Shown piece by piece: positions 957-36,043 of a stretch of DNA of 45,402 bases (its first letter is position 1; each line of letters opens with the position of its first letter). Made by a program: the position numbers and the translations under genes. This DNA comes from a virus. Location: IMG/VR virus record IMGVR_UViG_3300039454_000092; one strand, written 5' to 3'. Under the pieces are notes generated by a model. That model made no database searches. It was given only the letters and a program-made list of their open reading frames with translations, and was not told where the DNA came from.

Positions 957-2726
957 TCAGTGCGGCACGACGTGGCCGAGCAACGTCCCGGTGAACGTGA
1001 CCGTGATACTGTCACCCGGTTCGAGGATCAGCGTTGAGACGTTGGTGCCGATCGCGCCGTTGGCGCCGTTGCGCGTGAACGACAGCGCCGAAATCGACCC
1101 GCCCGAGTCCCAGAGTTGCACCTCCTGCTGCACACCGTTGTTGTTCGAGTTGGTGTACGTGTAGGGCGATGACGTGGTGCTGATCACGGAGATGGCGCCA
1201 AATGAGTTGCCCGTTGCCGCGAACTGGCAACCCCAGAACTTCACCTTGCCGACCGCCGATCCGTTCCCCGTGGACAGCACCGTGCCGGTGCCCGGCAAAT
1301 AGCAGCCATAGAAGTGGTTGAAGTCCTGGTTATTCCGCGCGTCGATGCAATAGGCCGTGGTCAATGACGAGTCGATCAGGAACGCGGTGCCATAGAAGTT
1401 GTTGCCGAACACATCGGTATTCGTGGTGCTGTAGTTCAGCACCATGCACGTCCCCGAGGTGGCGCCGACATCGAGCGCGATGATGCCGCCGATAAATTGG
1501 TTTGTGTCGCACTGGCTGTTGAACGTGACGCACACCGAGCCGGAGGCAAGCCCGGCGAAACTCTGGAAATTGCAGTTGATGAATGTGGTACCCGTGACCC
1601 CGTTCAAATAGAGCGCGCCGTAGTGCATGAGCGCGACGATCACCGTGTCGAAGGTGTTATTGCCGGCGATCGTCCGTGTCTGGCCCGAGCTGCCATCCAT
1701 GGAGATGCCCCAACCCTGGACGGTGCTATTGGTGCGCATCACGAGCAGGTTGCGGAAAATCGAGTTCTGCGGCGCGCCGAGGCCAAGGATTTTGTAAGCC
1801 AGATAAGCACCGTCGAAGACGATGTTTTCCATCCGGCCTTGCCAGTTATTGCCACCCGCGAGCATCTGACCGGTTGTGCCGCCGACCCAGGTTATCGTGG
1901 TGACCTGAAGCACCGAGCCTGGCGTGTAATAGATCGAGGAACCGAAGCCTTGAAGGTTGACGCCACGCGCGAGGTTGATGGTGGACGCGATGGCGTAATT
2001 CTTCGGTGCGAACACCACGGTTCCGCCCGTCCCCGATAGCGAGGAAATCGCGGCGTTGATCGCAGCCGAGTCATCGGTGGTGCCATTGCCGACCGCGCCG
2101 AACAGCTCCGGGGTGGTGTACCCATTGGGCAGCCCGAGCAGGGTCAACGCCGCGGCGCGCGAGGCCGCTTGCACCACCGCCAGCATGGCCGCCGAGATCG
2201 CCGCCGTGGTCGACGCCGGCAGGCCGGCTATGGGATTGCCGTTGGCGTCAAACATGAGCGCCATGTTTGCGCGTTCCGCGGCGGGCACCAGCGGATTGAA
2301 CGGCCCCGCATCGGCCGGGTTGAATTGCAGGGAACGCGCCGCGATCTCCGCGAGCTGCTGTATCTGCATTTCCAGGTTGTCATCCATGCCCTCGACGACC
2401 GAAGGCCAGAAGCCGCTTTGGTTCGCGAGCGAGGTCGGTTGCGTATACGGAATAACACGCTGCAGGGTTAGGGTGGTGCCCGCCGCGATCGGCGATCCGG
2501 TCAACGGATAGGTCACCGTGCCGCCCTGCGTTCCGCCGCCCGTGGTCGAGGTGCCCACCCCGGTGATCGAGTATTGCGCGGCGTTGAGCACGGTCTGATT
2601 GCCGAAGGTATCGGTATAGGTGAGCACCGCCTCTGACGCGATCGGCATCGCGAAACTGTACGAGAACGCGGTGGTTGCTCCGTTGCCTTGCCAGATCACC
2701 TTGGATGTGGTGGTTGAAATTGTCAT
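957..2726 (-). CDS. Tailspike or tail fibre with a pectate-lyase-type beta-helix (probable polysaccharide depolymerase)
   Basis: The 589-aa product carries TPELFGAVGNGTTDDSAAINAAISS, which matches the GxGDGxTDDTxAIQxAI signature of tailspike and pectate-lyase-3 domains. It has an N-terminal fibre-adaptor-like segment. The gene occupies the T7 gp17 position. Confidence 0.8.
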   Translation of the reverse strand: MTISTTTSKVIWQGNGATTAFSYSFAMPIASEAVLTYTDTFGNQTVLNAAQYSITGVGTSTTGGGTQGGTVTYPLTGSPIAAGTTLTLQRVIPYTQPTSLANQSGFWPSVVEGMDDNLEMQIQQLAEIAARSLQFNPADAGPFNPLVPAAERANMALMFDANGNPIAGLPASTTAAISAAMLAVVQAASRAAALTLLGLPNGYTTPELFGAVGNGTTDDSAAINAAISSLSGTGGTVVFAPKNYAIASTINLARGVNLQGFGSSIYYTPGSVLQVTTITWVGGTTGQMLAGGNNWQGRMENIVFDGAYLAYKILGLGAPQNSIFRNLLVMRTNSTVQGWGISMDGSSGQTRTIAGNNTFDTVIVALMHYGALYLNGVTGTTFINCNFQSFAGLASGSVCVTFNSQCDTNQFIGGIIALDVGATSGTCMVLNYSTTNTDVFGNNFYGTAFLIDSSLTTAYCIDARNNQDFNHFYGCYLPGTGTVLSTGNGSAVGKVKFWGCQFAATGNSFGAISVISTTSSPYTYTNSNNNGVQQEVQLWDSGGSISALSFTRNGANGAIGTNVSTLILEPGDSITVTFTGTLLGHVVPH

Positions 2727-11978: not shown

Positions 11979-14427
11979 CGGTGATCTCCGGTATCACGCC
12001 CAGGATCGTTGCGGGGACGGGATCATCCACCTGTAACCAGAGTTGCCCGCCCGTATCAAACTTTGGATCGAGCACGATACGCTCATCCCCGGTGACCAGC
12101 GGCAGCGGTCCGCCCAGCGCGATCGTACTATTCCATTCCTTAACCGGAACTACCGTTTGCGCGGTGCGACCGGCCTTCAACCCGCGCGTGTCGCGCACCC
12201 TGACGGTCACCGCGTTGATCTTCTTCCGCTTGCCCTGAACGGTGCCTTGCGGCCCATCGCCCGCGTCCAGATAGAGCGTTTGCAACTGGCATTGGAACGG
12301 CAGTCCGACCACCACCGACGACGCGGCAAACTGCAACGTCACCGCCCCACCGCTCACCACTTGCTGCGCCATGACGTTGCCGTCCGCGAGGATGCTCACC
12401 GTCTTGCCGTTGAGGTAGGACAGCCCCGAGACCGTGGTTACCGGCGTGGTCATCGTCCACGCACCTTGCGCGGCCGGTAGCGGCGTGGCTGAAGGATCGT
12501 TCGGCAGCGTCGGGAACGCCGCGGTGATAGTGGCCACCACGTGTTGCGTGTTCGTATAGCTGGTGATCGTCGCCTTGCCGGCGAACGCGCGGATGACCGC
12601 GCCCACATTGCCGCTACTGAACACCGCCTGATCGGCATAGAACGTGACGCTTGACCCGACCGTCCCCGCGCCGGTGCCGGGGAACAGATTGGCCGCGGGT
12701 TGCGGTTGCGACAGCGAAAGCCCGCAATCGACGCACCAGGCATTTTCGATGTTGGCGGGCACGCCCAGCGCCGGGTTGCCTTCGATCAGGAAGCGATCCG
12801 CCAGCCGTTCCACGGTGTACGTCCAGGCCCCGTTCAGGTAGCGCTTGACCAGGAAATAGGTCGCGTACACCACCGCAGTGGACACGGTGCCGCCGGAGGT
12901 TGTCGGCACGGTTTCCTTGACCACGCACGTGGATTGGAACAGCCCGTTCGTATCGTGGCGCGACCACGCGTAAACGTCCTGTTCCTTCAGATACGTGAAG
13001 CCCAGAAGGATGCCATCGTCGCGCACGCACCAAACCACCTTGTATGGCTCTTCCGCGTAGGACCATTCGCGGATGGTGCGCCCGCTGAACAGGTGGTTAC
13101 TGAGCACCGTCATATCGGTGCCGGTGTAAATGTTGACATAGAAGTTGTACGACAGATCGCGGATGTAGCCGTACGGATTGGCATACAGCACATCGAAGTT
13201 TGCCGTGATCGGTGGCAGATCGGACGCGCCGTTGAACGCTTGCGGTTGCGCCGTGATCGTGGATGGCGTGACCGCCGCGGGCACGCCGCCGAAGCCTGGC
13301 GAGCCGCCGGATATCAGCCAAGCGCCGTTCGAGGAAAATGCGATCAGCCCCGACGGCATCGGGGTAAAGGATTTGATCGCGTTCACCTGGGTTGACGCGA
13401 GGGTATCGGTGATCGCGTCGGATGGTTGCGTGGGATAGGCCGCGTCCATATTGGTGAACGCGCCGACCTTGGTTGCCCAGAAGGTTTCAGGGTCCGCGGC
13501 TGAACCACCGAACCACTGGCGTTGGCCATAGTACGTGGTGCAGCCTGGATAGTTCGAGCTGGCGAATGGGTTGTAATGCGTCGGCGGGGCGCTGGAAAAA
13601 TCCGGTTGCCCGTTGCGATCCACATAGGTGGTGCCGGTGCACGAGCCGATGAGGCCGAAGATGGAGTCAGCCGGCGCCCCTGCGTTCGGGGTTTCTTGCT
13701 GGCGATAGACGTTATAGCTGGTGGGCGTGGTGCCGGATGGTGCGGTCCATGTCACCGTCATGTAGGCGTTGCCATCGGTGGACATGATGCGCGAGCCGGT
13801 CGCGTTCGAGAAGCTGGCGGACGGAACGCTTTCTTCGCCGCTCGCACTGACCGCGGTCACGACATAGGTGTAGCTTGACGCGGTGGCATCACCCGAGGCC
13901 GCCGACTCCGACCCGTGCGTTGGCGATGCCGAGCCGCTGGTCGGCGGTTGTTGCACCGCAGCATAGGTTACCGTGGTAAGGGTCCAGCTGGTATCGCTGG
14001 TGCGCTTCAATTGCTGCGGTGCGTAGGATGGATGCGTCAGGGTAAGCGTGTCGGCGCTCTGTGTGAATTTCAGCAGCGGCAGATCGGCGAGCGCATACGG
14101 GCTGGAAATCGTGTAGGGCGAGCCGCCCGAGAGCACCTGGGCGCCCTGCTTGTAAACCGCGATGTAGCCGCTGCCGAATTCGAGCACGTAGGATTGCAAC
14201 GTCGAGAACTGGAACGGGATGAGCCGCGGTGGTGCGCTGGTTCCCGATGTGGCGCTGGTGGCGATGTAGCGCGTTCCGGGTCGGGTTGCCGCGCCGCCGC
14301 GGTAATCCACGAAGGTGTTGCGCATCGCCGCGGCGCCGACCTTGTATTTCGCGAGATCGACGCGCGCGAACACCGAAGGCGAGATTTCGCCCGCGGCAAA
14401 GGACGGCTGGATCAGGTTGACGGACAT
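11965..14427 (-). CDS. Tail tubular protein B (gp12-like nozzle)
   Basis: The product is 820 aa. Its N-terminus, MSVNLIQPSFAAGEISPSVFARVDLAKYKVGAAAMRNTFVDYRGGAATRPGTRYI, fits the conserved start of podovirus tail tubular B proteins. Confidence 0.7.
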   Translation of the reverse strand: MSVNLIQPSFAAGEISPSVFARVDLAKYKVGAAAMRNTFVDYRGGAATRPGTRYIATSATSGTSAPPRLIPFQFSTLQSYVLEFGSGYIAVYKQGAQVLSGGSPYTISSPYALADLPLLKFTQSADTLTLTHPSYAPQQLKRTSDTSWTLTTVTYAAVQQPPTSGSASPTHGSESAASGDATASSYTYVVTAVSASGEESVPSASFSNATGSRIMSTDGNAYMTVTWTAPSGTTPTSYNVYRQQETPNAGAPADSIFGLIGSCTGTTYVDRNGQPDFSSAPPTHYNPFASSNYPGCTTYYGQRQWFGGSAADPETFWATKVGAFTNMDAAYPTQPSDAITDTLASTQVNAIKSFTPMPSGLIAFSSNGAWLISGGSPGFGGVPAAVTPSTITAQPQAFNGASDLPPITANFDVLYANPYGYIRDLSYNFYVNIYTGTDMTVLSNHLFSGRTIREWSYAEEPYKVVWCVRDDGILLGFTYLKEQDVYAWSRHDTNGLFQSTCVVKETVPTTSGGTVSTAVVYATYFLVKRYLNGAWTYTVERLADRFLIEGNPALGVPANIENAWCVDCGLSLSQPQPAANLFPGTGAGTVGSSVTFYADQAVFSSGNVGAVIRAFAGKATITSYTNTQHVVATITAAFPTLPNDPSATPLPAAQGAWTMTTPVTTVSGLSYLNGKTVSILADGNVMAQQVVSGGAVTLQFAASSVVVGLPFQCQLQTLYLDAGDGPQGTVQGKRKKINAVTVRVRDTRGLKAGRTAQTVVPVKEWNSTIALGGPLPLVTGDERIVLDPKFDTGGQLWLQVDDPVPATILGVIPEITVGDS

Positions 14428-14502
14428 TCACGATTCCTGGATGCGCGGTCACGGTCGCGCCAAGTGCGGCGAACGAGACGCGGGATTTGCTAACCTTCGC
14501 GC

Positions 14503-14712
14503 ATGAGCACCACATTATCGCTTCCGAGTACGGAGCAGGAGCAGCGCGCGAAGTGGGACCTTCTGTTGCTCGACTTGGAATTGCGCTCCGAACAGCTCAG
14601 GCAACTGAAGCGCTATGAACCGCTGCGCCTGATGATATCCGCGATCACCGCTGCGGCTGCCCTGCTTGGTGCTGGCGCCGCACTTGGCGCGCTGGCCGCG
14701 CGGTTCCTGTAG
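14503..14712 (+). CDS. Opposite-strand tail-anchored small membrane protein (paralogue of 27196-27384)
   Basis: The 69-aa product has a charged coiled-coil-like N-terminus (EQEQRAKWDLLLLDLELRSEQLRQLKRYE). Its C-terminal TM segment is ISAITAAAALLGAGAALGALAARFL. Third-position GC is lower than in neighbouring genes. There is no SD sequence, so it may be leaderless. Confidence 0.6.
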   Translation: MSTTLSLPSTEQEQRAKWDLLLLDLELRSEQLRQLKRYEPLRLMISAITAAAALLGAGAALGALAARFL

Positions 14713-14727
14713 CCGACTCTGCGTAAC

Positions 14728-15252
14728 CTACGCCGCTTCGAGCACGCTCGCGCCGGTCCGCGCCAACGCATGCTGGCCGATGACGCCAGAGCCAGGGAAC
14801 AGATCGTCGAATTGATCGCCCTCCTGGACGTTCAGGAGATCCAATATCCAGACCGCGAACGCGTCCGGCTTGGCGCCCTTGAACCCCTCACCACGCTTCA
14901 TCCGCACGTTGCACGAGAGCCAATCCCGGATGGTCGGTTGCTCGTATGTGCGCTTGCGACCGCCGCGTAGGATCACCGGTTCCCAGGCGTAGGCCACACG
15001 CACGCCCGGCTTGAAGAACGCGAACGGCTTGACCCAGGAGCACACCCGGCAACCGTCAGGCAGCATCGGCAGCAGGGTTTGCAGGCTTGGCACCGATGCC
15101 GACATGGCCCAGCCGTCGGGGTATTCGACGGTGAGCCGTTCGATCAGCCCTCGGTGGGTTTCCGGGTCATCCCAGATCATCGCGTCGGGATGATGTTGCG
15201 CGTAGAAGCGAGCGCAGCCCAAATAGGGCGGGTCCGCGTATGCGAATTTCAA
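14728..15252 (-). CDS. DNA methyltransferase (N6-adenine or N4-cytosine, beta-class motif order)
   Basis: FAYADPPY (motif IV, DPPY) lies near the N-terminus and FDDLFPGSG (motif I, FxGxG) near the C-terminus. The likely start is TTG 15252, with GGAG 8 nt upstream, just after the upstream stop at 15267. The longest ORF extends to 15363. Confidence 0.8.
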   Translation of the reverse strand: MKFAYADPPYLGCARFYAQHHPDAMIWDDPETHRGLIERLTVEYPDGWAMSASVPSLQTLLPMLPDGCRVCSWVKPFAFFKPGVRVAYAWEPVILRGGRKRTYEQPTIRDWLSCNVRMKRGEGFKGAKPDAFAVWILDLLNVQEGDQFDDLFPGSGVIGQHALARTGASVLEAA

Positions 15253-15266
15253 CGTCAAAGCTCCAA

Positions 15267-16064
15267 TCAGAAAGCTGAAAACAGCGGCCCATAGGGGAAC
15301 AGAAATCCGCCGCCCCATTCCACGGTGCCGAACCACCGCGCGCCATGGCCTACCGTGATCCAATCAGGGGTGTGGTCCATGATCGTCAGCCCCTCATTGC
15401 CATCACCCACCCGCGCAATGATAATCTTGTCGTTGGCAATCTTGATGAGATCGTTTGCCCGCGCCCTGTCCCCGGTAAGCGCATAGCAAAGCTTGGCCGC
15501 CAACGCCGCGACCATCGCTTCCTGAAACAGCGGGTCCCACAGCGACTCAATGGTGATATCGCGCGTGTAGGTCAGCAGCGCTTGATCGGTGTTCGCGAGG
15601 ATCACCGTGATCTGCGAATTGTTCCCGTCGAGGTCGGTCCCGATCTGGAACCGCTGCCCCGGTGCGGCCCACCAGCTTTGCGAACCCGCCAGCTGGCCCG
15701 GGAACATCGGCACCGAACCCAAGGTAGCCAGGCTGTAATTCTGCACCAGCTTGCGCGCTTGCAGGCAATCGCTGGGGTACGCGTATTCGTAGAGCCAGCC
15801 TGGTGGCGGGTAGGCTTTGCTCCAAACTCCGGACGATGGAAAGTTCGGGGTTTCGGTGGTGCCCGGTGCCGACTTCAAGAGCGAGAGTTGCGCGGTCGCT
15901 TCTGCGAAGCCCCAATGCGCCGAGCGCACCAAGTGCTGGCGTATCGGGATGTAGTGCAGGCTGACGCTGTTCGACTCGTTGGACCCTTCGGTGAGGCTGG
16001 AAATGGTCGACCGCGTGCCGGCTTCCGACAGCGCGCGGTTTGCAATGGATACCTGATCGGTCAC
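15267..16064 (-). CDS. Tail tubular protein A (gp11-like adaptor)
   Basis: The 265-aa product has a GTG start in a GTGA overlap. Its N-terminus, VSIANRALSEAGTRSTISSLTEGSNESNSVSLHYIPIRQHLVRSAHWGFA, fits the conserved gp11-like opening (I.N.AL..lG...I.sl....s). Confidence 0.65.
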   Translation of the reverse strand: MTDQVSIANRALSEAGTRSTISSLTEGSNESNSVSLHYIPIRQHLVRSAHWGFAEATAQLSLLKSAPGTTETPNFPSSGVWSKAYPPPGWLYEYAYPSDCLQARKLVQNYSLATLGSVPMFPGQLAGSQSWWAAPGQRFQIGTDLDGNNSQITVILANTDQALLTYTRDITIESLWDPLFQEAMVAALAAKLCYALTGDRARANDLIKIANDKIIIARVGDGNEGLTIMDHTPDWITVGHGARWFGTVEWGGGFLFPYGPLFSAF

Positions 16065-16315
16065 TGCCCGAGACCCCAGCCCGCCGGCGCCATGCCGTTG
16101 GCGATGATGAGCACGCGATTAGGATCGCACTCTGTGATGGTCGCCTGAAACGGCGTGCCGGTATGCGTGCCGTCATCGGCGACGTTGACGGTATAGCTGC
16201 ACCCGGATTGCACCCACGTGCGCCCATACTGATCGGTGACGTCGGCGAGCGCCGGCTTGGCCGCGAGCATGTGCGACAGCAAGGACGTGGCGATGACCAA
16301 GGTTCTGGGTCGCAT
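16061..16315 (-). CDS. Small secreted protein (Sec signal peptide, 2 Cys)
   Basis: The 84-aa product begins MRPRTLVIATSLLSHMLAAKPALA|DV, which has n-, h- and c-regions with an AxA site. It is coupled to both neighbours by 1-4 nt overlaps. Confidence 0.65.
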   Translation of the reverse strand: MRPRTLVIATSLLSHMLAAKPALADVTDQYGRTWVQSGCSYTVNVADDGTHTGTPFQATITECDPNRVLIIANGMAPAGWGLGQ

Positions 16316-17610
16316 CAGAGATTGACCTTCAGAGCGCCGCCAGTGCCACCGATACCGCCCGTGGTTCCGGAGGGTGCCGTCGGCGCGCTGCCTGCGACGG
16401 TGTTGAAGCCGCTGGACGTCAGGGTGCCCGTCGAGAAGACGTGGATTTGGTAGGACCCGGAATAGCCGCCGGTGCCCGCCAGGCCGCCGTTGCCGGTGCC
16501 CAGGCCGTTGCCACCATTGGCCCCCGCGCCGCCGGAGACGTCCACGGCGTTGGTTGCCGTGCTGCCGAGCAGCTGGCCCAGGAACAGGTAGACCACGCCG
16601 CCACCGGCGCCCCCAGCCCCGCCACCGCCCGCGGCGTTGCCCGCGCTGGCGCTGGCCCCGGGCCCCGAGGCGCCAGGCCGTGCGGAGATCGCGCTGGCCG
16701 CCGTCGAGGGGCCGCGGTTCAGCGCTCCGCAGGCGAGATCGAGGTGCCCGCCAGGTTCGCCGCTGGCCCCGCCACCGCCGCCGGCATTGGTGCCATCGCC
16801 AGCCCCACCGCCGCCGCCGCCGGCATACATGCCGGGATAGATGACGTTTAGGCCGGTGTTGCGCGTGTAGTAGACCAGTGCTGCGTCCGGACTTGGCAGA
16901 TAGAGCGGGCTCACCGCGTTGCTGTTGGTTTGCGCCGTGGCGCCCGTCCCGCCCGCATTGGCGCCCGCTGCACCACCAGCGCCGCCGACCCCTCCCGAAC
17001 CGCCGTTGCCCGGCTCGGTCTGCCCGCCGGAGTTGCCCGCGTTCGAGCCGGCCGAGGTGCTGCCGTTGCCGCCTGCCCCGGGTGTTGACCCGTTCAGGAA
17101 TCGCGGTGGCAGCGTGTAATTGCTGCCGTCATTGTTCGTCGCGCCACCGGTAGAGCCGGACGCCGATGAGAACACGCCAGCGCCGTCGGCATTGATCGCC
17201 GAGGCGCCCGCTTGCGTGATGTCGCACGTGCCGAGAACGAATACCGGGAAGTTGGCCACCGCCAGCTTGCCGGTCCCCGAGAGCGTCAACGACTGATAGA
17301 ACATCGGTCGCGTCAGCGTGGTTGTACCGCTGGCGATCGTGACCGCGCCGTCGGCACCGCTGCCGAAATAGCCGGTTGCCACCGATCCTTGCGGCAGCCA
17401 GCCGGCACCGGTGTAGGTTTCGCAGTAGCCGGTTGTGAGATTGTAGCCGAGGGTGCCGAAGGGTGGCGCCGTTGGCCGTGCGGTGACAGTCCAGTTCGGG
17501 ACCGAGGCGCCGCTGCATGTTGGGGTTTGCGCCCAGGCTCCGCCGCTCAGCAGCAGGAGCACGAGCGAGGCCGGCGCCAGCGTCCGCCAGCGGTTCATTT
17601 GCACGGTCAT
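16315..17610 (-). CDS. Secreted glycine-rich fibre-like protein (paralogue 1)
   Basis: The product is 431 aa with the signal peptide LAPASLVLLLLSGGAWA|QT. It carries the shared module CSGASVPNWTVTARPTAPPFGTLGYNLTTGYCETY. Long GGxGG arrays follow, for example GNGGSGGVGGAGGAAGANAGGTG and GGGGGGAGDGTNAGGGGGASG. Confidence 0.7.
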   Translation of the reverse strand: MTVQMNRWRTLAPASLVLLLLSGGAWAQTPTCSGASVPNWTVTARPTAPPFGTLGYNLTTGYCETYTGAGWLPQGSVATGYFGSGADGAVTIASGTTTLTRPMFYQSLTLSGTGKLAVANFPVFVLGTCDITQAGASAINADGAGVFSSASGSTGGATNNDGSNYTLPPRFLNGSTPGAGGNGSTSAGSNAGNSGGQTEPGNGGSGGVGGAGGAAGANAGGTGATAQTNSNAVSPLYLPSPDAALVYYTRNTGLNVIYPGMYAGGGGGGAGDGTNAGGGGGASGEPGGHLDLACGALNRGPSTAASAISARPGASGPGASASAGNAAGGGGAGGAGGGVVYLFLGQLLGSTATNAVDVSGGAGANGGNGLGTGNGGLAGTGGYSGSYQIHVFSTGTLTSSGFNTVAGSAPTAPSGTTGGIGGTGGALKVNL

Positions 17611-17619
17611 CGGTCGCGA

Positions 17620-18273
17620 CTAGATCGGAACGACCGTGTAGACGACGGTGACGCGGACCGAGCCGTCCCCGCTGGTATAGGCTTGCTGCGAACTCAGCAA
17701 TTGCCACACCACCGGCAAGTTGGCGATCGACGCCGTCGTTGTCAGCAGCGGCGTTCCGTTCGCAGCGACCGGGTTGGAGTCGAGCGTGATGTTTGGCGTC
17801 GTGCGTGTCCCGATCCCACCGTCCCCGCCATCGGCCGCCAGGCCAGCATTGGTGCCGTAGAACAGGGACCCGCCCGTAGGACTGCCGCCGGGGTTATAGA
17901 GGACGGTGTAGGACAGCAGTTCATAGTTGGCGAAGAAGACGATAATCGCCCGCCCGCTTCCTGGTGCCGGAATGATGGTGACCGGCTTGGTGCTCAGCGT
18001 GAGGATTTGCGCGGAGGGTACCGTCACGGTCGCGACCTGAACCGCGACGGTGCCGAGCGGTTGCCAGATGCCGGCCGATGCCGAGTATTGCTCGCAATAG
18101 CCGACGGATGAGTTGTACCCGACGGTCCCGTCGGGCGGAGTCGTCGGACGGCCCGAGGTGGTCCAGCCTGGCACGGTGATGCCGTTGCACGTGCCCGAGG
18201 TTTGCGCCCGGGCTCCGCAGCCCAGCAACAGCAGCAGCGCCGCCCCAAGGGCGAGCCGAATAACGTGATTCAT
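17620..18273 (-). CDS. Secreted or lipoprotein fibre-like protein (paralogue 2)
   Basis: The 217-aa product starts MNHVIRLALGAALLLLLGCGARA|QT. This contains an LLGC lipobox as well as an AxA site. The shared module is CNGITVPGWTTSGRPTTPPDGTVGYNSSVGYCEQY. Confidence 0.7.
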   Translation of the reverse strand: MNHVIRLALGAALLLLLGCGARAQTSGTCNGITVPGWTTSGRPTTPPDGTVGYNSSVGYCEQYSASAGIWQPLGTVAVQVATVTVPSAQILTLSTKPVTIIPAPGSGRAIIVFFANYELLSYTVLYNPGGSPTGGSLFYGTNAGLAADGGDGGIGTRTTPNITLDSNPVAANGTPLLTTTASIANLPVVWQLLSSQQAYTSGDGSVRVTVVYTVVPI

Positions 18274-18282
18274 TCGATGCCC

Positions 18283-18918
18283 TCAGTTCAGCGGGACGGT
18301 GTTGTAGACGACGGTGATTCGGAGGCCGCCGTCACCGCCGGTGAGCCCGCCGTTCGAGGTGTAAACGACGGCCTGATTTGACAGGTAACCCGTCGCGCCG
18401 CCGACTGGACCCGATGCCGTGAAGGACGCGTTCGAGCCGAGCACGAAGATGTTCGGCGGGTTCTGTGCGAGAACGCCGCCGTCGCCGCCGTCGGCGACGA
18501 CGGCGATACCGCCCCCAAAGTTCACCGATCCATAGTACAGACCGCCGCCGTCGGTGTAGGGCGTAGTGCCGAACAGCGCTTCATAGATTGCGAACAGAAC
18601 GATGATCGCGCGCCCGGTTCCCGGCGCGGGGACGATCGTCACTGGCGTGGCGTTTGCGGCCAGGATTTGCGCCTTGGTCAAGGTGACGATGGCGATTTGC
18701 GCGGCGACGGTACCGAGCGGCAGCCAAATACCCAGCCCCGCCGAGTATTGCTCGCAATAGCCAACCGTGCTGTTGAAACCGACGGTGCTATCGGGCGGGG
18801 TTGTCGGGCGCGCGGAGGTGGTCCAGCTCGGGACCGACACGCCGTTGCAGGATTGCGCCCATCCCGCGCGCGGCAGCGAGGCCGCCAGCAACGCGAGGAA
18901 CGCGATAATCCGCAGCAT
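18283..18918 (-). CDS. Secreted fibre-like protein (paralogue 3)
   Basis: The internal ATG at 18918 overlaps the upstream stop (TGATG). The signal peptide is MLRIIAFLALLAASLPRAGWA|QS. The shared module is CNGVSVPSWTTSARPTTPPDSTVGFNSTVGYCEQY. By eye it is about half identical to paralogue 2 along its length. The longest ORF, to 19104, overlaps the upstream gene. Confidence 0.65.
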   Translation of the reverse strand: MLRIIAFLALLAASLPRAGWAQSCNGVSVPSWTTSARPTTPPDSTVGFNSTVGYCEQYSAGLGIWLPLGTVAAQIAIVTLTKAQILAANATPVTIVPAPGTGRAIIVLFAIYEALFGTTPYTDGGGLYYGSVNFGGGIAVVADGGDGGVLAQNPPNIFVLGSNASFTASGPVGGATGYLSNQAVVYTSNGGLTGGDGGLRITVVYNTVPLN

Positions 18919-19328
18919 CAGCACCACACCCGATGCGCGCCGATCGTGGCCCACACCGGCCCCGTCGCAACCACGCACTGCACCTGGAAAAACGCTGGCG
19001 CATAGTCCTGGGCTTTGGCGTTCGCCGCCGCCGCGATCGCCGGCCCAACTTCGATCAGGGTCAACCCCGTGGCCGAAATCGCCGCGGACGCGAGGATGCT
19101 CCACGTCGCACCACTCGAATTGTCATAGCCGAGCAGGGTGACGGTGAGAGATCCCGCGGTGATCGCACTGACGTTGATCGCGATCCGCAGTGCAGGCGAC
19201 GGATTGTAGAACGGGCCGAAGGTGACGTTCGCGGACTGGTTCGTCAGTGTGGCCAGCAGCTCGTCGGTGTTGTTGACAACCGACGTGACCTTTTCGACGG
19301 TCGCGAGGTCGGAGGTGGGAACAGTCAT
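18918..19328 (-). CDS. Hypothetical virion-module protein
   Basis: The 136-aa product shows coding-like third-position GC. It is coupled to the downstream gene. Confidence 0.55.
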   Translation of the reverse strand: MTVPTSDLATVEKVTSVVNNTDELLATLTNQSANVTFGPFYNPSPALRIAINVSAITAGSLTVTLLGYDNSSGATWSILASAAISATGLTLIEVGPAIAAAANAKAQDYAPAFFQVQCVVATGPVWATIGAHRVWC

Positions 19329-19405
19329 GCGCGCGCCCTCAATCCGGAGCGGCTTGCGCCGCCCCGGTTAAGCTTCAGGATGATCCAGTGTTACGGGTTC
19401 AGAAC

Positions 19406-20044
19406 CTAGTTCCCCGACAACGACTCCTCACTCCACGTGAACCGGATTTCGAACGCAATGCCCGACGGTAGCGCGGTGCCAAGCCCGTTCAGCGCGAACT
19501 GCTGGTTCGCGTTGCGCAGGATCGGTGCCTTGTCGTTCATGCCGGTGAACGTCCAAACCAACGGCGCGATGCCCGAGCCGCCACCGGTCAGGGTGCCGCC
19601 GACGACACGGCCGGCGCGGATCGTGCCGACCAAAGTCCCCGCCGTCGGCGCCGCACTGTACTTCAGGACCGAGCAGCTTGCCGCCACGTCGTTCGGATCG
19701 CAGGGAACCGCGGTCACCGCCGCCGAGGTGCCGCCGGTGTCCGGGGCACTGTTGACGTTCAGCGCCAGTTCGTACGCGCACGCCGCGGTCGCAGCGCACC
19801 AGACTTCCACCGCGAGCAGTCGGCACACCACGAGCGATGAACCGGTGAGGGTGAAAAAGTCCTGCGGTGTGGCCTGTGGCGTGAACGCGGTCACCGCCGC
19901 CGAATAGGTCGGCTTGCGGCCTTCCGAGTTTGACAACTCCTGGCCGTACTGGTTGACCGCGAGTCCCTGGCCGCTGTTGAGGAACGCGTCAACCTGCTTG
20001 AAGAGGCCAGCAACAGCGACCTGTTGCGCAACCGGTAATGCCAT
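19406..20044 (-). CDS. Hypothetical virion-module protein
   Basis: The 212-aa product has a 1-nt overlap with the upstream stop. Its composition is beta-rich. Confidence 0.55.
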   Translation of the reverse strand: MALPVAQQVAVAGLFKQVDAFLNSGQGLAVNQYGQELSNSEGRKPTYSAAVTAFTPQATPQDFFTLTGSSLVVCRLLAVEVWCAATAACAYELALNVNSAPDTGGTSAAVTAVPCDPNDVAASCSVLKYSAAPTAGTLVGTIRAGRVVGGTLTGGGSGIAPLVWTFTGMNDKAPILRNANQQFALNGLGTALPSGIAFEIRFTWSEESLSGN

Positions 20045-20565
20045 CAGACCGCCCTCCCTTTACCGGCATGCGAAGGCGCGGACGCCAGCGCTGCCGCCAT
20101 CACGCGCAACGCGTCCTGCAACGCCACCTGGCCTTGCACGAGCGCATCCAACTGCGCCGCCTGTGCGCCGCCCGCGCGCGCCGCATCGGCACGCTCGCGG
20201 GCCACGCTGGCCTCGCGATCCATGGCTTCCAACAGCCCGGAAACCAGCTGTTCGACGGTCCGCCCGCCAATCGGGTCCCGGCCCAGCGGCAAGTGCCGGG
20301 TCGGGTCCAGCGAGGCATTCGGGTGCGCTTCCCAGTAGGCAGCCATGGCCGCGCGCGCCTCATCGTTCAGCGGTTCGAGGTGCGGGCCCGGGACGCCCAG
20401 GTATTCGATCTCAGCGCCAGCGGAGAGCAGTTCGCACACCGGTGCGCGAATGCCGTAGATGCGCGCCGCCTGGTGATCGGCGCCGAGCTGGAGTAGTTGC
20501 GGTTCCGGCGATCGGGGCAAGTACGCACCCTTCTCGTCGATCACGCGGTAGCGTGGTGTTGCCAT
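20044..20565 (-). CDS. Hypothetical virion-module protein
   Basis: The product is 173 aa. The gene lies between the decoration-like gene and the 212-aa gene. Confidence 0.55.
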   Translation of the reverse strand: MATPRYRVIDEKGAYLPRSPEPQLLQLGADHQAARIYGIRAPVCELLSAGAEIEYLGVPGPHLEPLNDEARAAMAAYWEAHPNASLDPTRHLPLGRDPIGGRTVEQLVSGLLEAMDREASVARERADAARAGGAQAAQLDALVQGQVALQDALRVMAAALASAPSHAGKGRAV

Positions 20566-20577
20566 CTCGCAAACTTT

Positions 20578-20610
20578 CGACGGCCGCGCATCGATGCTGC
20601 CCGGCCGTCG
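20578..20610 (-). terminator. Intergenic stem-loop after the decoration-like gene
   Basis: CGACGGCCG (20578-20586) pairs with CGGCCGTCG (20602-20610) as a perfect 9-bp stem with a 15-nt loop. On the minus strand it is followed by AAAGTTTG. Confidence 0.35.
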
Positions 20611-20646
20611 CCTTTCTTCAGATCAGGTTTTGAGGGGTGACTCCGC

Positions 20647-21336
20647 TTACGCGCCCGACGGCCACGAGAAGCCAGGCGGATAGAGCGCCGGCTGGTCCTC
20701 ATCGAGCACCAGGCCAGCCCAGATCGAGCCCGCGGTCATGGTGGCCGAGCACGTGTACGACAGCCGCAAGAAACGCGGTTTCGGCTGGGGTGCACTGAAC
20801 GCCGTCGTGACCGAGGTCGCGGTGCCCGACGCGTTGGCCGAGAGGGTCAACGTCACACCGGAGATCGTCGAGATCGTGGTGCCCGGGACGATGTTCGGGT
20901 TGCCGTAGATCACCATGCCATCGAGCAGACCGGTTGCCGACGCCACCGTAGCCGAGTTGGACGCAGCGGTGGTCGTCAGGGTGGTAATCACCGGGGTGAG
21001 CGGGAACTCCGAGACCGACGCGAGTTCGACCTTCAGCGGCCGCTGCCCTGCCGTCAGCATGCCGAGCGGCAGTGCCGAGGTGGCTTGCAAGGTCTGATAG
21101 CCGCCCGGAGATCCCGAGCCGTTGTCCGGTGCGCCCTGGACCGCGATGGTGAGGGTTGCGGTTGCGGTTGCGCTGGCGAACGTGGTGATGACGCCGACGA
21201 CGATCGACGGGGCGATATAGCCCGCGCCGCCGAGGTCGCGACCTGCCACGAGGTCCAGCACGTTGGACGATGTTGCGGTCACGGTGATAGCCGTGCCCGT
21301 GATCGGCTCGAATAGGAGCTGACCGTCGATTATCAT
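20647..21336 (-). CDS. Capsid decoration / cement-like protein (Bbp16-like, tentative)
   Basis: The 229-aa product lies immediately downstream of the major capsid gene. It has a Thr/Ala-rich beta composition. The N-terminus MIIDGQLLFEPITGTAITVTATSSNVLDL and the C-terminal RFLRLSYTCSATMTAGSIWAGLVLD resemble decoration proteins of BPP-1-like podoviruses. This is recall only and has not been searched. Confidence 0.45.
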   Translation of the reverse strand: MIIDGQLLFEPITGTAITVTATSSNVLDLVAGRDLGGAGYIAPSIVVGVITTFASATATATLTIAVQGAPDNGSGSPGGYQTLQATSALPLGMLTAGQRPLKVELASVSEFPLTPVITTLTTTAASNSATVASATGLLDGMVIYGNPNIVPGTTISTISGVTLTLSANASGTATSVTTAFSAPQPKPRFLRLSYTCSATMTAGSIWAGLVLDEDQPALYPPGFSWPSGA

Positions 21337-21353
21337 ATGTCAATTTCTCCGAA

Positions 21354-21383
21354 TGTCTGACGAGTCAGACAGGATGTCGGACA
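21354..21383. promoter_or_regulatory. TGTCNGAC motif triplet between the capsid and decoration genes
   Basis: TGTCTGAC-GA-GTCAGACA forms 8-bp perfect inverted arms at 21354-21371, and TGTCGGAC follows at 21375-21382. The same 8-mer family is clustered at 43588-43892. Confidence 0.5.
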
Positions 21384-21397
21384 GGAGCGCGTGTTGA

Positions 21398-21426
21398 TTT
21401 TTCCGACCTCGAATGAGGCGGAAAAA
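21398..21426 (-). terminator. Stem-loop directly after the major capsid gene stop
   Basis: TTTTTCCGACCTC-gaat-GAGGCGGAAAAA forms a stem of about 13 bp with one bulge. Its position is typical of the hairpin that boosts capsid mRNA abundance. No U-tract follows the stem. Confidence 0.4.
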
Positions 21427-21431
21427 ACGCG

Positions 21432-22478
21432 CTACGAGACGGTCGCTTCCGTGCTGAGCAGCTGGTCGACGGTGCGGATCGGCACGCCGCAGTAATTCAT
21501 GACCGGCTTGCCGTCCCAGTTCTCCATGTTCAGGAGCAGGTTCGGCTTGTTGTGCATCTGTATCCGCAGCCACGTCCGGATGACGCGGTTTGCATACAGC
21601 ACGCTCCGATCACCGCTCGCGACCCGACCCGAGGCATCGGTCACCGCCTGCGTAGACGCCGCACGCGCCATCAGCCGTGGCGGACGCTCCAACATGCGGT
21701 CCAGCGCGTTGATCAAGTTCGGGGCGTTGACACCGGCAAGCGTTGTGACGTCGATGTTCGCGGCCCGCACCTGGAAACGCCAGTCAGCAACGAACAGCCC
21801 GGCTTCCCATTTGAAGTGCGAGCGATACGCCTGATAGGTGTTGTTGTTGCTGTCGAGAACCGGCCATTCGCCCATGTCGATGTGCTGAAGCCCGGCCTTC
21901 CTGCCCTTGGGGAAAATCCCGTGACAGGTATCGTCGGACCAGGACACCAGCCAGAGCGAGGTGTTTGTGCTCGCACTGCCGCCCATCGAGATCACGTTGT
22001 TCGCGGTCTGCGCATTGCTCACCGTCGCGGTGGCATAGTACGGCGACAGGCCGGTGAACGTCGCAGGCGAGGTCGGCGCGTAGCCGTAGAACAGCTGCCC
22101 GGCCATGTACTGCGACATGCCTTCGAAGAAGCCACGGTCCTGATTAAGCCGGTACGCCGCGGTGTTGCCGTTGAGGTCCGCGAGGTCCTTGTCGATCACG
22201 CTGTAGGCTTCGAAGTTGCCGCACGTCGCGACGATCGGCGCAGCGGTCGCCTTGGCGTTCGGCACGCCGACGTTGATCGGTCGCGCGGTGGGCGTCGGCA
22301 GCGAGGTGCGCACCGTGCCCTTGTGCCCGGTGACGAGGTTGCCCTCGATCCAAAGCATGTCGTCGAGGATTTCGTTTGCCTGCGACAGCAGATCGATAAT
22401 GACCGCCGTCTTGCCGTCCGGGTCCTGCTCGCGGGCCCAATCCGCAAGCGTGGTTGCCGTTGTACCGAGGGTTGCCAT
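21432..22478 (-). CDS. Major capsid protein
   Basis: The 348-aa product follows the scaffold gene. Its N-terminus, ATLGTTATTLADWAREQDPDGKTAVIIDLLSQANEILDDMLWIEGNLVTGHKGTVRTSLP, resembles the conserved opening of BPP-1-type podovirus coat proteins. Confidence 0.8.
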   Translation of the reverse strand: MATLGTTATTLADWAREQDPDGKTAVIIDLLSQANEILDDMLWIEGNLVTGHKGTVRTSLPTPTARPINVGVPNAKATAAPIVATCGNFEAYSVIDKDLADLNGNTAAYRLNQDRGFFEGMSQYMAGQLFYGYAPTSPATFTGLSPYYATATVSNAQTANNVISMGGSASTNTSLWLVSWSDDTCHGIFPKGRKAGLQHIDMGEWPVLDSNNNTYQAYRSHFKWEAGLFVADWRFQVRAANIDVTTLAGVNAPNLINALDRMLERPPRLMARAASTQAVTDASGRVASGDRSVLYANRVIRTWLRIQMHNKPNLLLNMENWDGKPVMNYCGVPIRTVDQLLSTEATVS

Positions 22479-22487
22479 TCACGTGTC

Positions 22488-23246
22488 CTATCGGGCGCCG
22501 GGCGCCTGATTGTGCGTTGGGTAAAGGAGGTCCGCCGGATTGGTTTGCTGGCGTGCCGGAGCGCCGGCCACGTGGCCGCCTTCCGTGTGTGCCGCAGCAA
22601 GCCGCGCGATGAACCGCACGATGGCAGGGTTATTCCCAGCGCCGGTGAGAAGGAGAGCCTGGTTCAGGGCCTTTCTCTCGGGCGTGTTAGGTGCACCTGC
22701 GTAGTCATCCATGAGCCGCGCGACGTTGAGGCGCATCGGCTCGAAGTGATCGCCGCCGATCTCAGGATCGGCCTTGATTTCCGCTTGCCAACCTTCGTTG
22801 GTTTTGACCCAGGCTTGCGCGGCTGCGTTGGCAGCCTCGGCGATCTGTCCGCCGACTTTGCCGATGATCGCTTGCGCTTGGTCCTGTGTGAGACCGAGCT
22901 TGCCCGCTTCCTCGCAGAAAGCGGCGAGCGTGGCATTGTCTTTCGCCAGCCCCTCGGGCAGCTCGAAATCGGTGTATTCGACCGGCGCTGCCGGTTCTTT
23001 CGGGGCATCTCCTTTCGGGGCATCGCCTTTCGGAGTATCCCCTTTGGTCGCGTCGCCTTCCGGCTGGGCGGGGGCGTCGGTTAAAACCGAGGCCGTGACG
23101 ACGGTATCAGTGCCCGTGTCAGCCGGCGCGCCGCCCGCCGGCTTTTCACCAGCCGGAGCAGCAGCAGGGGCAGCAGGAGCCGGCGCAGCGGGCGCAGCAG
23201 CAGGGGCACCGGCCGCAGGAGCGGCCGGCGTGATCGTTTCACTCAT
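22488..23246 (-). CDS. Scaffolding protein
   Basis: The 252-aa product lies between the portal region and the capsid gene. It has an Ala/Pro-rich acidic N-terminus with KGD(T/A)P repeats and a helical C-terminus. Confidence 0.6.
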   Translation of the reverse strand: MSETITPAAPAAGAPAAAPAAPAPAAPAAAPAGEKPAGGAPADTGTDTVVTASVLTDAPAQPEGDATKGDTPKGDAPKGDAPKEPAAPVEYTDFELPEGLAKDNATLAAFCEEAGKLGLTQDQAQAIIGKVGGQIAEAANAAAQAWVKTNEGWQAEIKADPEIGGDHFEPMRLNVARLMDDYAGAPNTPERKALNQALLLTGAGNNPAIVRFIARLAAAHTEGGHVAGAPARQQTNPADLLYPTHNQAPGAR

Positions 23247-23288
23247 AAAGGTCCCTTAAATTACGAACTCAAACCGACTGGGGGAAAC

Positions 23289-23486
23289 ATGGCGATAGGT
23301 CCGGGCAAATATGACGACCTCGCAACCTACGTGCGGGAACATGCATGCGCCGAAGCCGTGGTGATTGCCGTGTTCAATGGTTACAGAGGGTCCGGATTTA
23401 GCGTGCAGAGGCCGCTTGGCGCCGTTTTGTCGGTTCCGAGACTTCTGCGGACGCTTGCCGATCTCATCGAGCTTGACGGAGGGTAG
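23289..23486 (+). CDS. Opposite-strand small hypothetical protein (moron-like island)
   Basis: The 65-aa product has the RBS GGGGGAAAC directly before its ATG. Third-position GC is visibly lower than in the flanking late genes. Confidence 0.5.
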   Translation: MAIGPGKYDDLATYVREHACAEAVVIAVFNGYRGSGFSVQRPLGAVLSVPRLLRTLADLIELDGG

Positions 23487-27401: not shown

Positions 27402-27836
27402 TCAATCGCCCACCAGCCGCGCGACCATCCGTGGCCCGCGTTCGCCGACCTGGTGCCACCACTGCGAGGCACGCAGCTCCGCCGCCGCACCAGCCCAGTC
27501 CTGTTGCTCCATCCGCGCCAGGAACCGGCGGAACGTCGAGAGCGTCGGCCAGCCCATGTTGAACGTCAGGTTGACCATCACCCGTTGCCGTGCTGGTGGC
27601 AGCGTCCGCCACCACGGTATGAAGTGATCGAGGTCCGCGACCGCTTCGTCCACATCGTGCTGAAACATCGCTTCGCACTCGGCGGCCGTGATCCCGTTCG
27701 AGGTCAGGTTCCGGCCGATGCCGATCGAGGCATAGCCGCGCGAGTCGACGTAGAGCCGAAGGTTGCGCCCTTCATCCACCGTCAGTTCCGCCTGGAGCGC
27801 ATCCCAGCCGAACGTGTCGTGTGCGGTCCCGCTCAT
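27402..27836 (-). CDS. Endolysin, T4-lysozyme-like (GH24 muramidase)
   Basis: ELTVDEGRNLRLYVDSRGYASIGIGRNL matches the T4L catalytic region (E-x8-D-x5-S/T, IGIG). The start at 27836 is in an ATGA overlap. There is no N-terminal TM or SAR segment. Confidence 0.9.
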   Translation of the reverse strand: MSGTAHDTFGWDALQAELTVDEGRNLRLYVDSRGYASIGIGRNLTSNGITAAECEAMFQHDVDEAVADLDHFIPWWRTLPPARQRVMVNLTFNMGWPTLSTFRRFLARMEQQDWAGAAAELRASQWWHQVGERGPRMVARLVGD

Positions 27837-28219
27837 GACAGCCTGACCCGGACCTCGGACGTACTCGGACGGTCCCGCAGCTGCGCAGTCCTGATCCGCA
27901 GCCCCGCCAGCATTTGCGCAATCGCGTTGGCATAGCCGGCATGCATCGTGGCCGAGACGCACGTGCCCGCATTGTGCAGCAGCGCGACAACCGCGTTCCA
28001 CCGCACGTCGTACAGCTCCGCCCCGATATCGCCGGCCGACTCCGAGGCCGCGATCATGGCAGCGGACAGCGCCGAGCACGCCAACGGCAGCGCAAACACC
28101 GAGGGACGGCCCAACTCATCAAGCGGTAGCGCGCGCAACCGCGCGACGCGTTCCGCGCATTTCTCCGCCAATGCCAGCCTTGCTTGCAGGGCTTCGAAAT
28201 GCTCACTCGCGCGGCTCAC
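27833..28219 (-). CDS. Hypothetical protein
   Basis: The 128-aa product is coupled on both sides by ATGA overlaps. Confidence 0.55.
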   Translation of the reverse strand: MSRASEHFEALQARLALAEKCAERVARLRALPLDELGRPSVFALPLACSALSAAMIAASESAGDIGAELYDVRWNAVVALLHNAGTCVSATMHAGYANAIAQMLAGLRIRTAQLRDRPSTSEVRVRLS

Positions 28220-35131: not shown

Positions 35132-35331
35132 CCGCCGCGGAGATCCGCCAGCTCCGCGAGGAACTGGGCCTCAGCCAGGCTCACGCGGCGAAGATGCTTG
35201 GCGTTAACGACCGGACATGGCGACGGTGGGAACTGTCCGAGTCGGAGATGCCGGCGCCGGCGGTGCGCTTGCTCCTAGTGATGCACCTGCCCGCGGTACA
35301 GCGGGCCCTGGTCCAGATGACGGACCCATGA
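35128..35331 (+). CDS. XRE-type helix-turn-helix DNA-binding protein
   Basis: AEIRQLREELGLSQAHAAKMLGVNDRTWRRWE is a classic HTH_XRE pattern. The start is in an ATGA overlap, with ATG 35116 as the alternative. Confidence 0.7.
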   Translation: MTAAEIRQLREELGLSQAHAAKMLGVNDRTWRRWELSESEMPAPAVRLLLVMHLPAVQRALVQMTDP

Positions 35332-36043
35332 TCCGCCGCACTTGCGACGCGTGCCACCGGTCCCCGCCCGACGGGGGCCGGATTCCCCGGGCCGTCAGAG
35401 CCTCCGCAATTTCACGCAGTGAAACGGCCCCAGCCTTTTTTGCCGACTCGATGTAGGGCAGCACGTCGGCCGCGTGCTCACGCGACAGCCGAGTCCGCTC
35501 CCGCCGCGCTTCGGCCATCGACTCGGGCGACCCCGGCCGAAGCCGCGGATTGCCCATCTTGACCCCGCGCGCCTTGGCCGCCGCCATCGCCGCGATGGTC
35601 CGTTGGCTGATCAGCCCCGCCTCAAGCTCCGCGACCGCGGCGAACAACGTCAAGACGAACGCCCCGGCCGGGCCGGGCGGAAGCTGCGGCAGATCGCAGA
35701 AGACGATGCCACCCTCACCCGCGCCACGGACCACCGACAGGAGGAACGCGGTATCGCGCGCCAGGCGATCCAATTTGGCGATTATCAAAGTTGCGCGGCG
35801 GGCCCGACAGGCCGCGAGTGCCAGGGCGAGCTCGGGGCGATCCCGGCGCGTGCCCGACTCAACCTCCTGATACTCGCTGACCAGCCGGCCGCCGGCCGAC
35901 TCGATATACCGACCTATGGCCGTCCGCTGGGCATCGAGGCCCAGCCCGGAGCGGCCCTGCTTATCCGTACTGACCCGGACATAGGCCACGTACCCCGGCG
36001 CCACAGGGGCGCCAGGGCGCGGCGCGGCGCGCGCGCGAGGCAT
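35204..36043 (-). CDS. Small serine recombinase (resolvase/invertase family)
   Basis: YVAYVRVSTDKQ carries the catalytic Ser motif. The product also has LIIAKLDRLARD and the E-helix AELEAGLISQRTIAAMAAAK. The C-terminal segment GIRPPSGGDRWHASQVRRIM is HTH/recombinase-like. Only 279 aa are encoded. Confidence 0.85.
   Translation of the reverse strand: MPRARAAPRPGAPVAPGYVAYVRVSTDKQGRSGLGLDAQRTAIGRYIESAGGRLVSEYQEVESGTRRDRPELALALAACRARRATLIIAKLDRLARDTAFLLSVVRGAGEGGIVFCDLPQLPPGPAGAFVLTLFAAVAELEAGLISQRTIAAMAAAKARGVKMGNPRLRPGSPESMAEARRERTRLSREHAADVLPYIESAKKAGAVSLREIAEALTARGIRPPSGGDRWHASQVRRIMGPSSGPGPAVPRAGASLGASAPPAPASPTRTVPTVAMSGR

Follow-up and report, generated by a model that had tools for sequence, protein, structure and literature searches.

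Four leader-bearing genes at the boundary between head and tail modules

We analysed a viral DNA of 45,402 nucleotides (nt), IMG/VR record IMGVR_UViG_3300039454_000092, hereafter the window, by which we mean this whole stretch. At positions 16061-18918 it carries four consecutive minus-strand genes, termed gA, gB, gC and gD, whose products all begin with a predicted export leader. These genes had been singled out by an earlier inspection of the letters (the sequence-only reading), and they were confirmed both by the open reading frames (ORFs) and by publicly available gene calls, made independently on a permuted version of this sequence in ENA, which list the identical four products. Their reported position between the head genes and tail tubular protein A also held, with a 136-amino-acid (aa) cement-like protein encoded upstream and a gp11-like adaptor downstream. 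Since the 136-aa protein resembles the cementing protein of phage BPP-1, gA-gD are placed exactly where the last head gene meets the first tail gene (Table 1). This resemblance (to 3J4U_H) was obtained with a seven-sequence profile built from the window protein and six orthologues.

The genes had been described as joined to each other and to the gp11-like gene by overlaps of 1-4 nt, which proved accurate at three of the five junctions (136-aa gene/gA, 1 nt; gC/gD, 1 nt; gD/gp11, 4 nt), whereas gA/gB and gB/gC are separated by 9-nt gaps, the former containing GAGGG. No promoter or terminator of their own emerged from a scan of positions 14400-23400 for sigma-70 promoters and terminators, which yielded what is expected from shuffled sequence, sigma-70 being a model that may not suit the host. 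Of the three paralogues proposed, gA and gB are indeed related over their full length (53% identity), but gC has only the leader and the module that follows it in common with them. Scans of Pfam, NCBIfam and PADLOC (the latter at E <= 0.05) gave no match to gA-gD, and PHROGs returned for gA-gC only marginal matches, which fall on the module. No homologue of gD was present in any of the relative loci fetched, and no relatives of the C-terminal region of gC were found.

Table 1. Coordinates of gA-gD, their predicted parts and the structural genes used as landmarks (window numbering)
Feature	Position (nt)	Strand	Details
gA, 211 aa	18283..18918	-	leader aa 1-21 (nt 18856-18918)
gA module, aa 22-67	18718-18855	-	C24, C55
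gA knob domain, aa ~72-211	18286-18705	-	family profile vs PDB 9EG4_H
gB, 217 aa	17620..18273	-	leader aa 1-23 (nt 18205-18273); possible lipobox LLGC at C19
gB module, aa 27-72	18058-18195	-	C29, C60
gB knob domain, aa 76-217	17623-18048	-	
gC, 431 aa	16315..17610	-	leader aa 1-27 (nt 17530-17610)
gC module, aa 30-73	17392-17523	-	C32, C63
gC Gly-rich C-terminal region, aa 80-431	16318-17373	-	2 further Cys; no knob
gD, 84 aa	16061..16315	-	leader aa 1-24 (nt 16244-16315); cleaved product 60 aa, 2 Cys
gp11-like adaptor (tail tubular protein A)	15267..16064	-	phrog_394, 1.7e-40; first tail gene, GTG start
136-aa gene, BPP-1 cementing-protein-like	18918..19328	-	last head gene; 3J4U_H, E 0.002
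Canonical tailspike, 589 aa, leaderless	957..2726	-	gp17-like N-terminal tail-attachment domain + pectate-lyase beta-helix

Predicted export leaders

Leaders were called with a heuristic of our own that scores an n-h-c organization ending in AxA, that is, a positive n-region, an uncharged h-region of ~8-18 residues and small residues at -3 and -1; as a control, it placed the true cleavage site in 7/7 textbook E. coli leaders. Applied to the 32 ORFs of the window, it flagged four, which are exactly gA, gB, gC and gD, with scores in the range of the textbook leaders and predicted cleavage at GWA|QS, ARA|QT, AWA|QT and ALA|DV, respectively. The leaders announced by the sequence-only reading were thus recovered on all four proteins. 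It had also suggested asking whether homologues keep the hydrophobic N-terminus, and a profile search revealed an AxA leader in all 11 homologues of the leader-plus-module unit, mostly followed by Q, while the sequence of the hydrophobic core diverges. Over the leader-coding segments the G+C content at third codon positions (GC3) is 0.88, the level of coding sequence in the rest of the genome, and the first in-frame start past the leader (V27 in gA, V34 in gB) lies inside the conserved module, beyond its first Cys.

Inspection by eye for the lipobox pattern [LVI][ASTVI][GAS]C at the end of the h-region disclosed a doubtful candidate (LLGC, atypical at -2) in gB only, with none in gA, gC, gD or the homologues. 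Export through the Tat pathway was considered and rejected, as no twin-arginine motif was seen by eye in gA-gD; a spanin architecture is likewise absent from the four proteins. That gA-gD are exported through Sec and cleaved by signal peptidase I is probable, a prediction that we regard as well supported.

A cysteine-bracketed fibre module follows the leader

Directly behind the leader, gA, gB and gC share a module of 45 residues with 11 invariant columns across the 11 homologues, in agreement with the claim that the same Cys-bracketed module opens three of the mature proteins. An exhaustive profile search evidenced that the leader-plus-module unit recurs in some ten further proteins, 98-1012 aa long and with C-termini that are unrelated, one of which (at locus L002; related loci are numbered with the prefix L) continues with fibre-type shaft motifs after the module.

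The module also occurs without cysteines, as a tandem repeat in giant fibre-like proteins. The modules of gA, gB and gC align to the repeat W-T-x-x-R-P-x-x-P-x-x-G-x-x-G-F/Y-N-x-T-x-x-x-x-E-x-W of these proteins, and the AlphaFold2 (AF2) model of gB matches a small domain near the C-terminus of the phage CBA120 tailspike TSP3 (PDB 5W6F/6NW9) over 46 columns with a Foldseek probability of 1.0; the sequence profile of the module points, weakly (E 1.9), to TSP3 residues 573-622. The likeness to a fibre motif that had been noticed by eye is therefore real by profile search, hidden Markov model (HMM) alignment and fold match, and it supports the fibre-derived composition proposed for these proteins. 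The fibre and TSP3 repeats are, however, internal, often in tandem and Cys-less, whereas gA-gC carry a single copy after the leader with two invariant cysteines. We thus describe the module of gA-gC, from its sequence, as a predicted Cys-bridged version of a common fibre repeat.

Among 59 module copies compared by HMM alignment, both cysteines are found in 15/15 copies that follow a leader and in 0/44 internal fibre copies (Fisher p 2.5e-14). Locus L003 provides an internal control, as its leaderless 802-aa tailspike carries a Cys-less module (aa 146-199), while the adjoining protein P0054 combines a leader with the Cys pair and shares 29% identity with the spike in the C-terminal domain (E 3e-8). 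In a parity test of our own, the number of cysteines remaining after leader removal was even in 14/15 leader-bearing slot proteins versus 9/19 other proteins of the window (binomial p 0.0005). Of the indirect evidence for working leaders and for folding of these proteins in an oxidising compartment, the association of cysteines with leaders and the even counts are the strongest.

No copy of this leader-plus-module unit turned up in a scan of 185,579 species-representative genomes, which gives no sign of resident prophages or host copies. A word-indexed homologue search with gB returned only gB itself, the same kind of search with the leader-plus-module alignment returned at least one short protein among the matches listed, and a metagenome scan for the module recovered duplicates only. 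The phage collection contained no relative at the DNA level and gave one marginal protein match, again to the module.

The knob domain of gA and gB has a virion homologue

The C-terminal domain of gA and gB (~140 aa), which we call the knob, is that of a large family: of the 1426 representative proteins retrieved (E <= 0.001), the majority match this part of the profile, as do most of the 150 that were listed. The domain either makes up a small protein by itself or ends a larger one of collagen-like, coiled-coil or long fibre type. Among solved structures the family profile matches one, PDB 9EG4 chain H (hmmsearch E 7.4e-20; hhalign probability 97.5%), which is the head-decoration protein Orf16 (ALK43931.1) of Legionella phage LME-1. 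Orf16 forms trimers that project from the capsid and whose distal part is poorly ordered (PMC12407071). Its C-terminal domain (aa 127-268) is homologous to the knob of gA and gB, and the gene for Orf16 occupies, in a T7-like podophage, a position between capsid and adaptor genes, as gA-gD do. Orf16 is nevertheless leaderless, and its own N-terminal region of ~125 residues, which by eye ends in VTxxKL-type repeats, has no counterpart in gA and gB; these carry a Sec leader and the Cys-bridged module in its place. Residues 1 to ~125 of Orf16 presumably hold the trimeric capsid-binding base described for this protein (PMC12407071). The protein gC is unrelated to Orf16, and so, probably, is gD.

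The AF2 model of gB (mean predicted local distance difference test, pLDDT, 78.8) starts with a helix, continues with a small beta module and ends in a C-terminal domain made up mainly of beta strands. Modelling followed by fold search, as the sequence-only reading had advised, was informative for the module, with its TSP3 match, but for the C-terminal domain it gave in the PDB only weak matches to jelly-roll capsid and cement proteins, on which we do not claim cement-protein homology for the knob; the model also has fold matches in BFVD. The structure 9EG4 was not among the PDB matches, and the domain shared with Orf16 is therefore probably its distal knob, the part unmodelled in 9EG4. The single-sequence AF2 model of gC was unusable (pLDDT 33.6), and the possibility that gC is a knob domain bearing an insertion was rejected (hhalign probability 0.2%). 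At 84 aa, gD is shorter than the knob domain.

A PHROGs scan of 45 knob-family members produced two marginal single-member matches. Leaders were recognized by eye in ~15% of the sampled family members, in unrelated lineages, and one leader-bearing knob protein is encoded just upstream of the tail-tube gene of a siphophage. At L015/L016 (e.g., L016 1137-6368), a leader-bearing knob protein is encoded in a bacterial secreted-protein cluster with no phage genes nearby; the cluster also contains a 1075-aa CBM96 protein and several small leader-bearing proteins. The knob family is thus not confined to phages.

PHROG matches to tail-fibre N-termini placed a gp17-like tail-attachment domain in the 589-aa tailspike only, and not in gA-gD. 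As far as their sequences tell, gA-gD carry no recognisable domain for docking to capsid or tail. A detached capsid base of the LME-1 type was also sought in the 136-aa neighbour and rejected (hhalign probability 1% against the N-terminal region of Orf16).

Related phages fill the same slot with other leader-bearing proteins

In L002, L004/L005/L020, L025 and L026, a leader-plus-module gene directly follows the gene for a 136-138-aa protein, overlapping it in L025 and L026. In L003 the leaderless 802-aa spike comes between, followed by leader-bearing P0054, and in L006 the gp11-like and gp12-like genes flank the unit. The gene that follows the gp16-like gene in L022/L023 encodes a leader-plus-module protein of 1012 aa, at the place taken by the tailspike in the window, L024 and L027. 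Locus L010 (13254-17369) lacks the module and presents instead three leader-bearing genes ahead of gp11, linked to one another through stop and start codons that overlap. They encode a protein of 290 aa, a GH5 cellulase (PF00150, 7.4e-16) and also a pectate-lyase-like beta-helix, and the products keep an even number of cysteines (4, 6 and 12) once the leader is removed. The adjacent interval between the gp11-like and gp12-like genes also carries cargo, which is DPPY methyltransferase-like in the window, lysozyme-like in L003 and toxin-antitoxin-like in L025, and plainly non-virion.

The phages of the window and of L003 both retain a canonical tailspike. The presence of this gene in the window (Table 1) makes the four leader-bearing proteins additional to a normal receptor-binding protein. 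Together, these comparisons present gA-gD as the predicted cargo of a hypervariable slot at the head/tail boundary in a clade of uncultured podophages.

More distant loci from Syntrophobacteraceae metagenome-assembled genomes (MAGs), L011 (13434-13892) and L012 (12723-13223), encode at this same head/tail boundary a lysis cassette and a conserved lipoprotein of ~150 aa; the boundary may be an old site for envelope-directed genes.

The phage and its probable host

The window genome is that of a podophage combining a T7-type tail with an epsilon15/BPP-1-type head. Its capsid protein matches Pfam GP7 (2.8e-112) and a Bbp16-like cement protein is also present in the head module; the tail and ejection module comprises the portal and gp11-like, gp12-like, gp13/14-like, gp15-like and gp16-like proteins, the latter of 1904 aa. 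The closest cultured phages are only ~45% identical in the capsid protein and lack the extra genes. The window probably represents a complete circular or terminally redundant genome of ~45.4 kb, because the ENA assembly of the same sequence (L001) starts elsewhere, being circularly permuted with gB at nt 1599 of 45,387 bp.

A capsid protein 80% identical to that of the window is encoded by a contig binned in an Acetobacteraceae MAG (L010), and a more distant one by a contig in a Telmatospirillum MAG; host assignment is based on this binning. A 97-aa ORF after the tailspike (649-942) is spanin-like, with an N-terminal transmembrane segment and a coiled-coil-like region of the inner-membrane type, and in L027 (8403-9049) a similar inner-membrane spanin-like ORF is found after the tailspike together with a lipoprotein that resembles an outer-membrane spanin. 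No lipoprotein partner was found in the window. Spanin-type genes in the window and its relatives indicate a host with two membranes, in which Sec export would end in the periplasm.

The window further encodes a small serine recombinase (35204-36043), an ERF and YqaJ pair (41587-43004) and a phage lysozyme between terminase and portal (27402-28079). The recombinase and ERF/YqaJ genes suggest, by sequence, a temperate-type lifestyle; no integration site was found in the window. Two Bbp16-like jelly-roll proteins seem to be present, of 229 aa (20647-21336) and 136 aa (18918-19328). The gp16-like internal virion protein (2799-8513) bears an HExxH motif, HEFGH, which is HETGH in its L022 orthologue and hints at a zinc-peptidase-like domain in this ejection protein. 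The interval between the gp11-like and gp12-like genes (14503-15252) holds, besides the DPPY methyltransferase-like ORF on the minus strand (14728-15252), a plus-strand ORF of 69 aa (14503-14712) with a C-terminal hydrophobic segment.

Exported fibre derivatives or virion parts

The best-supported interpretation of these data is that the leader stands where a virion-docking domain would be, and that the slot hosts a clade-wide cassette of exported carbohydrate-binding or carbohydrate-cutting proteins. According to this model, gA-gD would be transcribed and translated together with the late structural genes, and each product would be led by its Sec/signal-peptidase-I leader to the periplasm, cut after AxA and oxidised there. 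Cleaved gA and gB would then consist of the 45-residue fibre-repeat module with one disulfide clamp, followed by the beta-rich knob. Within the envelope of the infected cell, the four proteins would bind the surface glycan or receptor recognised by the phage; with this receptor masked or trimmed, neither the infected cell nor its debris would adsorb sibling or competing phages, and release would be facilitated. The glycanase cargo of the relatives and T5 Llp are the analogies on which we propose such masking or trimming of a glycan receptor from inside the cell. The complete statement, that gA-gD are late, Sec-exported, disulfide-bonded, fibre-derived proteins acting on envelope glycans or receptors, stands in our judgement at an even balance between true and false. 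The analysis shows the gene structure, the leaders, their association with cysteines, the homologies and the slot comparison, while actual export, disulfide formation, absence from the virion and function are all points that we infer.

Several observations weigh against this statement. The LME-1 decoration protein, proven to belong to the virion, is homologous to the knob and has its gene at the corresponding place, flanked by capsid and adaptor genes; the leader-plus-module protein of L022/L023 occupies the canonical tailspike slot. The tight coupling of gA-gD to structural genes, with no promoter or terminator of their own detected, is the pattern expected of virion components. Export is read from sequence, late expression suits classical superinfection exclusion poorly, the periplasm has no direct access to the outer surface, and no catalytic or glycan-binding site was identified in gA-gD.

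In a second explanation, gA-gD would be virion fibres or decorations that are exported, disulfide-bonded in the periplasm and bound to capsid or tail only at lysis, when holin lesions merge cytoplasm and periplasm. Decoration proteins such as Hoc, Soc, gpD and Dec can be added in vitro to finished capsids. The position in the structural operon with translational coupling, the homology of the knob to a real head-decoration protein, the occupancy of the tailspike slot by P0061, the shaft motifs after the L002 module and the leader-bearing knob protein next to the siphophage tail-tube gene all fit such periplasm-matured parts, and the leaders and Cys pair fit them as well as they fit envelope proteins. 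On the other hand, gA-gD have no recognisable docking domain and their 136-aa neighbour is unrelated to the N-terminal region of the LME-1 protein; the leader-bearing GH5 cellulase in the L010 slot is an unlikely virion part; and leader-bearing knob proteins exist in a bacterial secreted cluster without phage genes. Moreover, we know of no precedent for post-export assembly of tailed-phage parts. We therefore consider this explanation unlikely, although it is the one that survives best among the alternatives. Its more general form, that a tailed phage matures a particle part outside the cytoplasm by Sec export, disulfide formation by host Dsb and docking at lysis, would explain why export leaders occur on genes coupled in structural slots, the tailspike slot included, and appears to us quite unlikely.

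The sequence-only reading had offered, as its own alternative, virion parts with an unusual hydrophobic N-terminal anchor. In this scenario gA-gD would be assembled in the cytoplasm as accessory head or tail fibres, their hydrophobic N-terminus being a structural or membrane anchor rather than a Sec signal. Location in the structural operon, fibre-like domain content, the tailspike-slot case of L022/L023 and the virion homologue of the knob, itself leaderless, speak for it. The proposal is nevertheless weakened: what is conserved at the N-termini is not sequence but the features of a signal peptide, with a positive n-region, 11-14 uncharged core residues and small residues at -3 and -1; even Cys counts and the Cys pair appear only with a leader; and the leaderless relatives that exist for both domains are those with virion anchors. 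Ordinary cytoplasmic assembly is accordingly improbable.

An equally low probability is assigned to lysogenic-conversion morons, that is, adhesin-like surface or periplasmic proteins of benefit to the host through biofilm or matrix binding or a changed lysogen surface. The temperate-type genes (serine recombinase, ERF, YqaJ), the tendency of the slots around gp11 to collect morons, the leader-bearing knob proteins in bacterial secreted-protein clusters and the repeats of P0017, which by eye resemble adhesin head repeats, would agree with this origin. It is countered by the overlapping stop and start codons that tie the genes to late genes, with no independent promoter or terminator emerging from the scan, and by the recovery of the leader-plus-module unit from 0/185,579 species-representative genomes. 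Least probable are periplasmic anti-phage or lysis-control factors that would bind the tail tip or ejection proteins of superinfecting phages (T4 Spackle-like) or sense superinfection (T4 RI-like), since the predicted periplasmic location and an arms race suggested by diverged paralogues and fast C-terminal domain turnover are opposed by the lack of similarity to known exclusion or defence families in PADLOC, NCBIfam and Pfam, by late expression and by the cargo of the relatives, which is carbohydrate-active and not protein-binding.

Comparison with known systems

Phage receptor-binding modules are usually regarded solely as particle parts. Here, a whole clade appears to keep a cassette coupled to structural genes in which fibre, knob and glycanase domains are mounted on export leaders and refitted with disulfides. 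Should the products act on the receptor from within the infected cell, they would represent a new route to receptor masking or destruction and offer a new source of proteins that bind or cut glycans and that fold under oxidising conditions. Should they join the particle after their export, the rule of entirely cytoplasmic assembly of tailed-phage virions would be broken. In either case, the association between leader and cysteines is a simple sequence signature for finding more such proteins.

The sequence-only reading knew of no described system with this layout, and we agree, as a literature search found no described exported fibre paralogues and the library scans nothing convincing. A functional parallel is offered by Llp of T5 and Cor of phi80, N15 and T1, exported proteins that are encoded beside receptor-binding genes and stop adsorption to infected cells or debris. 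The same adsorption-blocking function is what we propose for gA-gD by analogy, Llp being a receptor-blocking envelope protein (PMC9586334). Llp and Cor differ, however, in being small lipoproteins unrelated to fibres, with early or independent expression of their own and no sequence similarity to gA-gD, among which only gB has a lipobox, and a doubtful one.

In gene order, gA-gD recall Lom and Bor of lambda, late-operon morons for envelope proteins that come with a promoter and a terminator of their own and are expressed by lysogens. Both cases place signal-peptide proteins inside the structural gene block of a temperate-type phage, but gA-gD overlap structural genes, have no promoter or terminator of their own that we could find and are built from fibre parts. 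A third parallel concerns free forms of depolymerases, which arise from alternative starts or excess production and stay in the cytoplasm until lysis. They share with the cassette a particle-free second copy of a receptor-binding or receptor-degrading domain, as in P0054 versus the 802-aa spike of L003 or the pectate-lyase-like protein of L010, whereas Sec leader and disulfides would here be signs of active export ahead of lysis. Phage morons that are exported and depolymerases in free form both belong to kinds already known; what is new is the combination of a disulfide-locked fibre repeat behind a Sec leader with swappable knob, spike or enzyme domains, tandem paralogues and coupling to structural genes.

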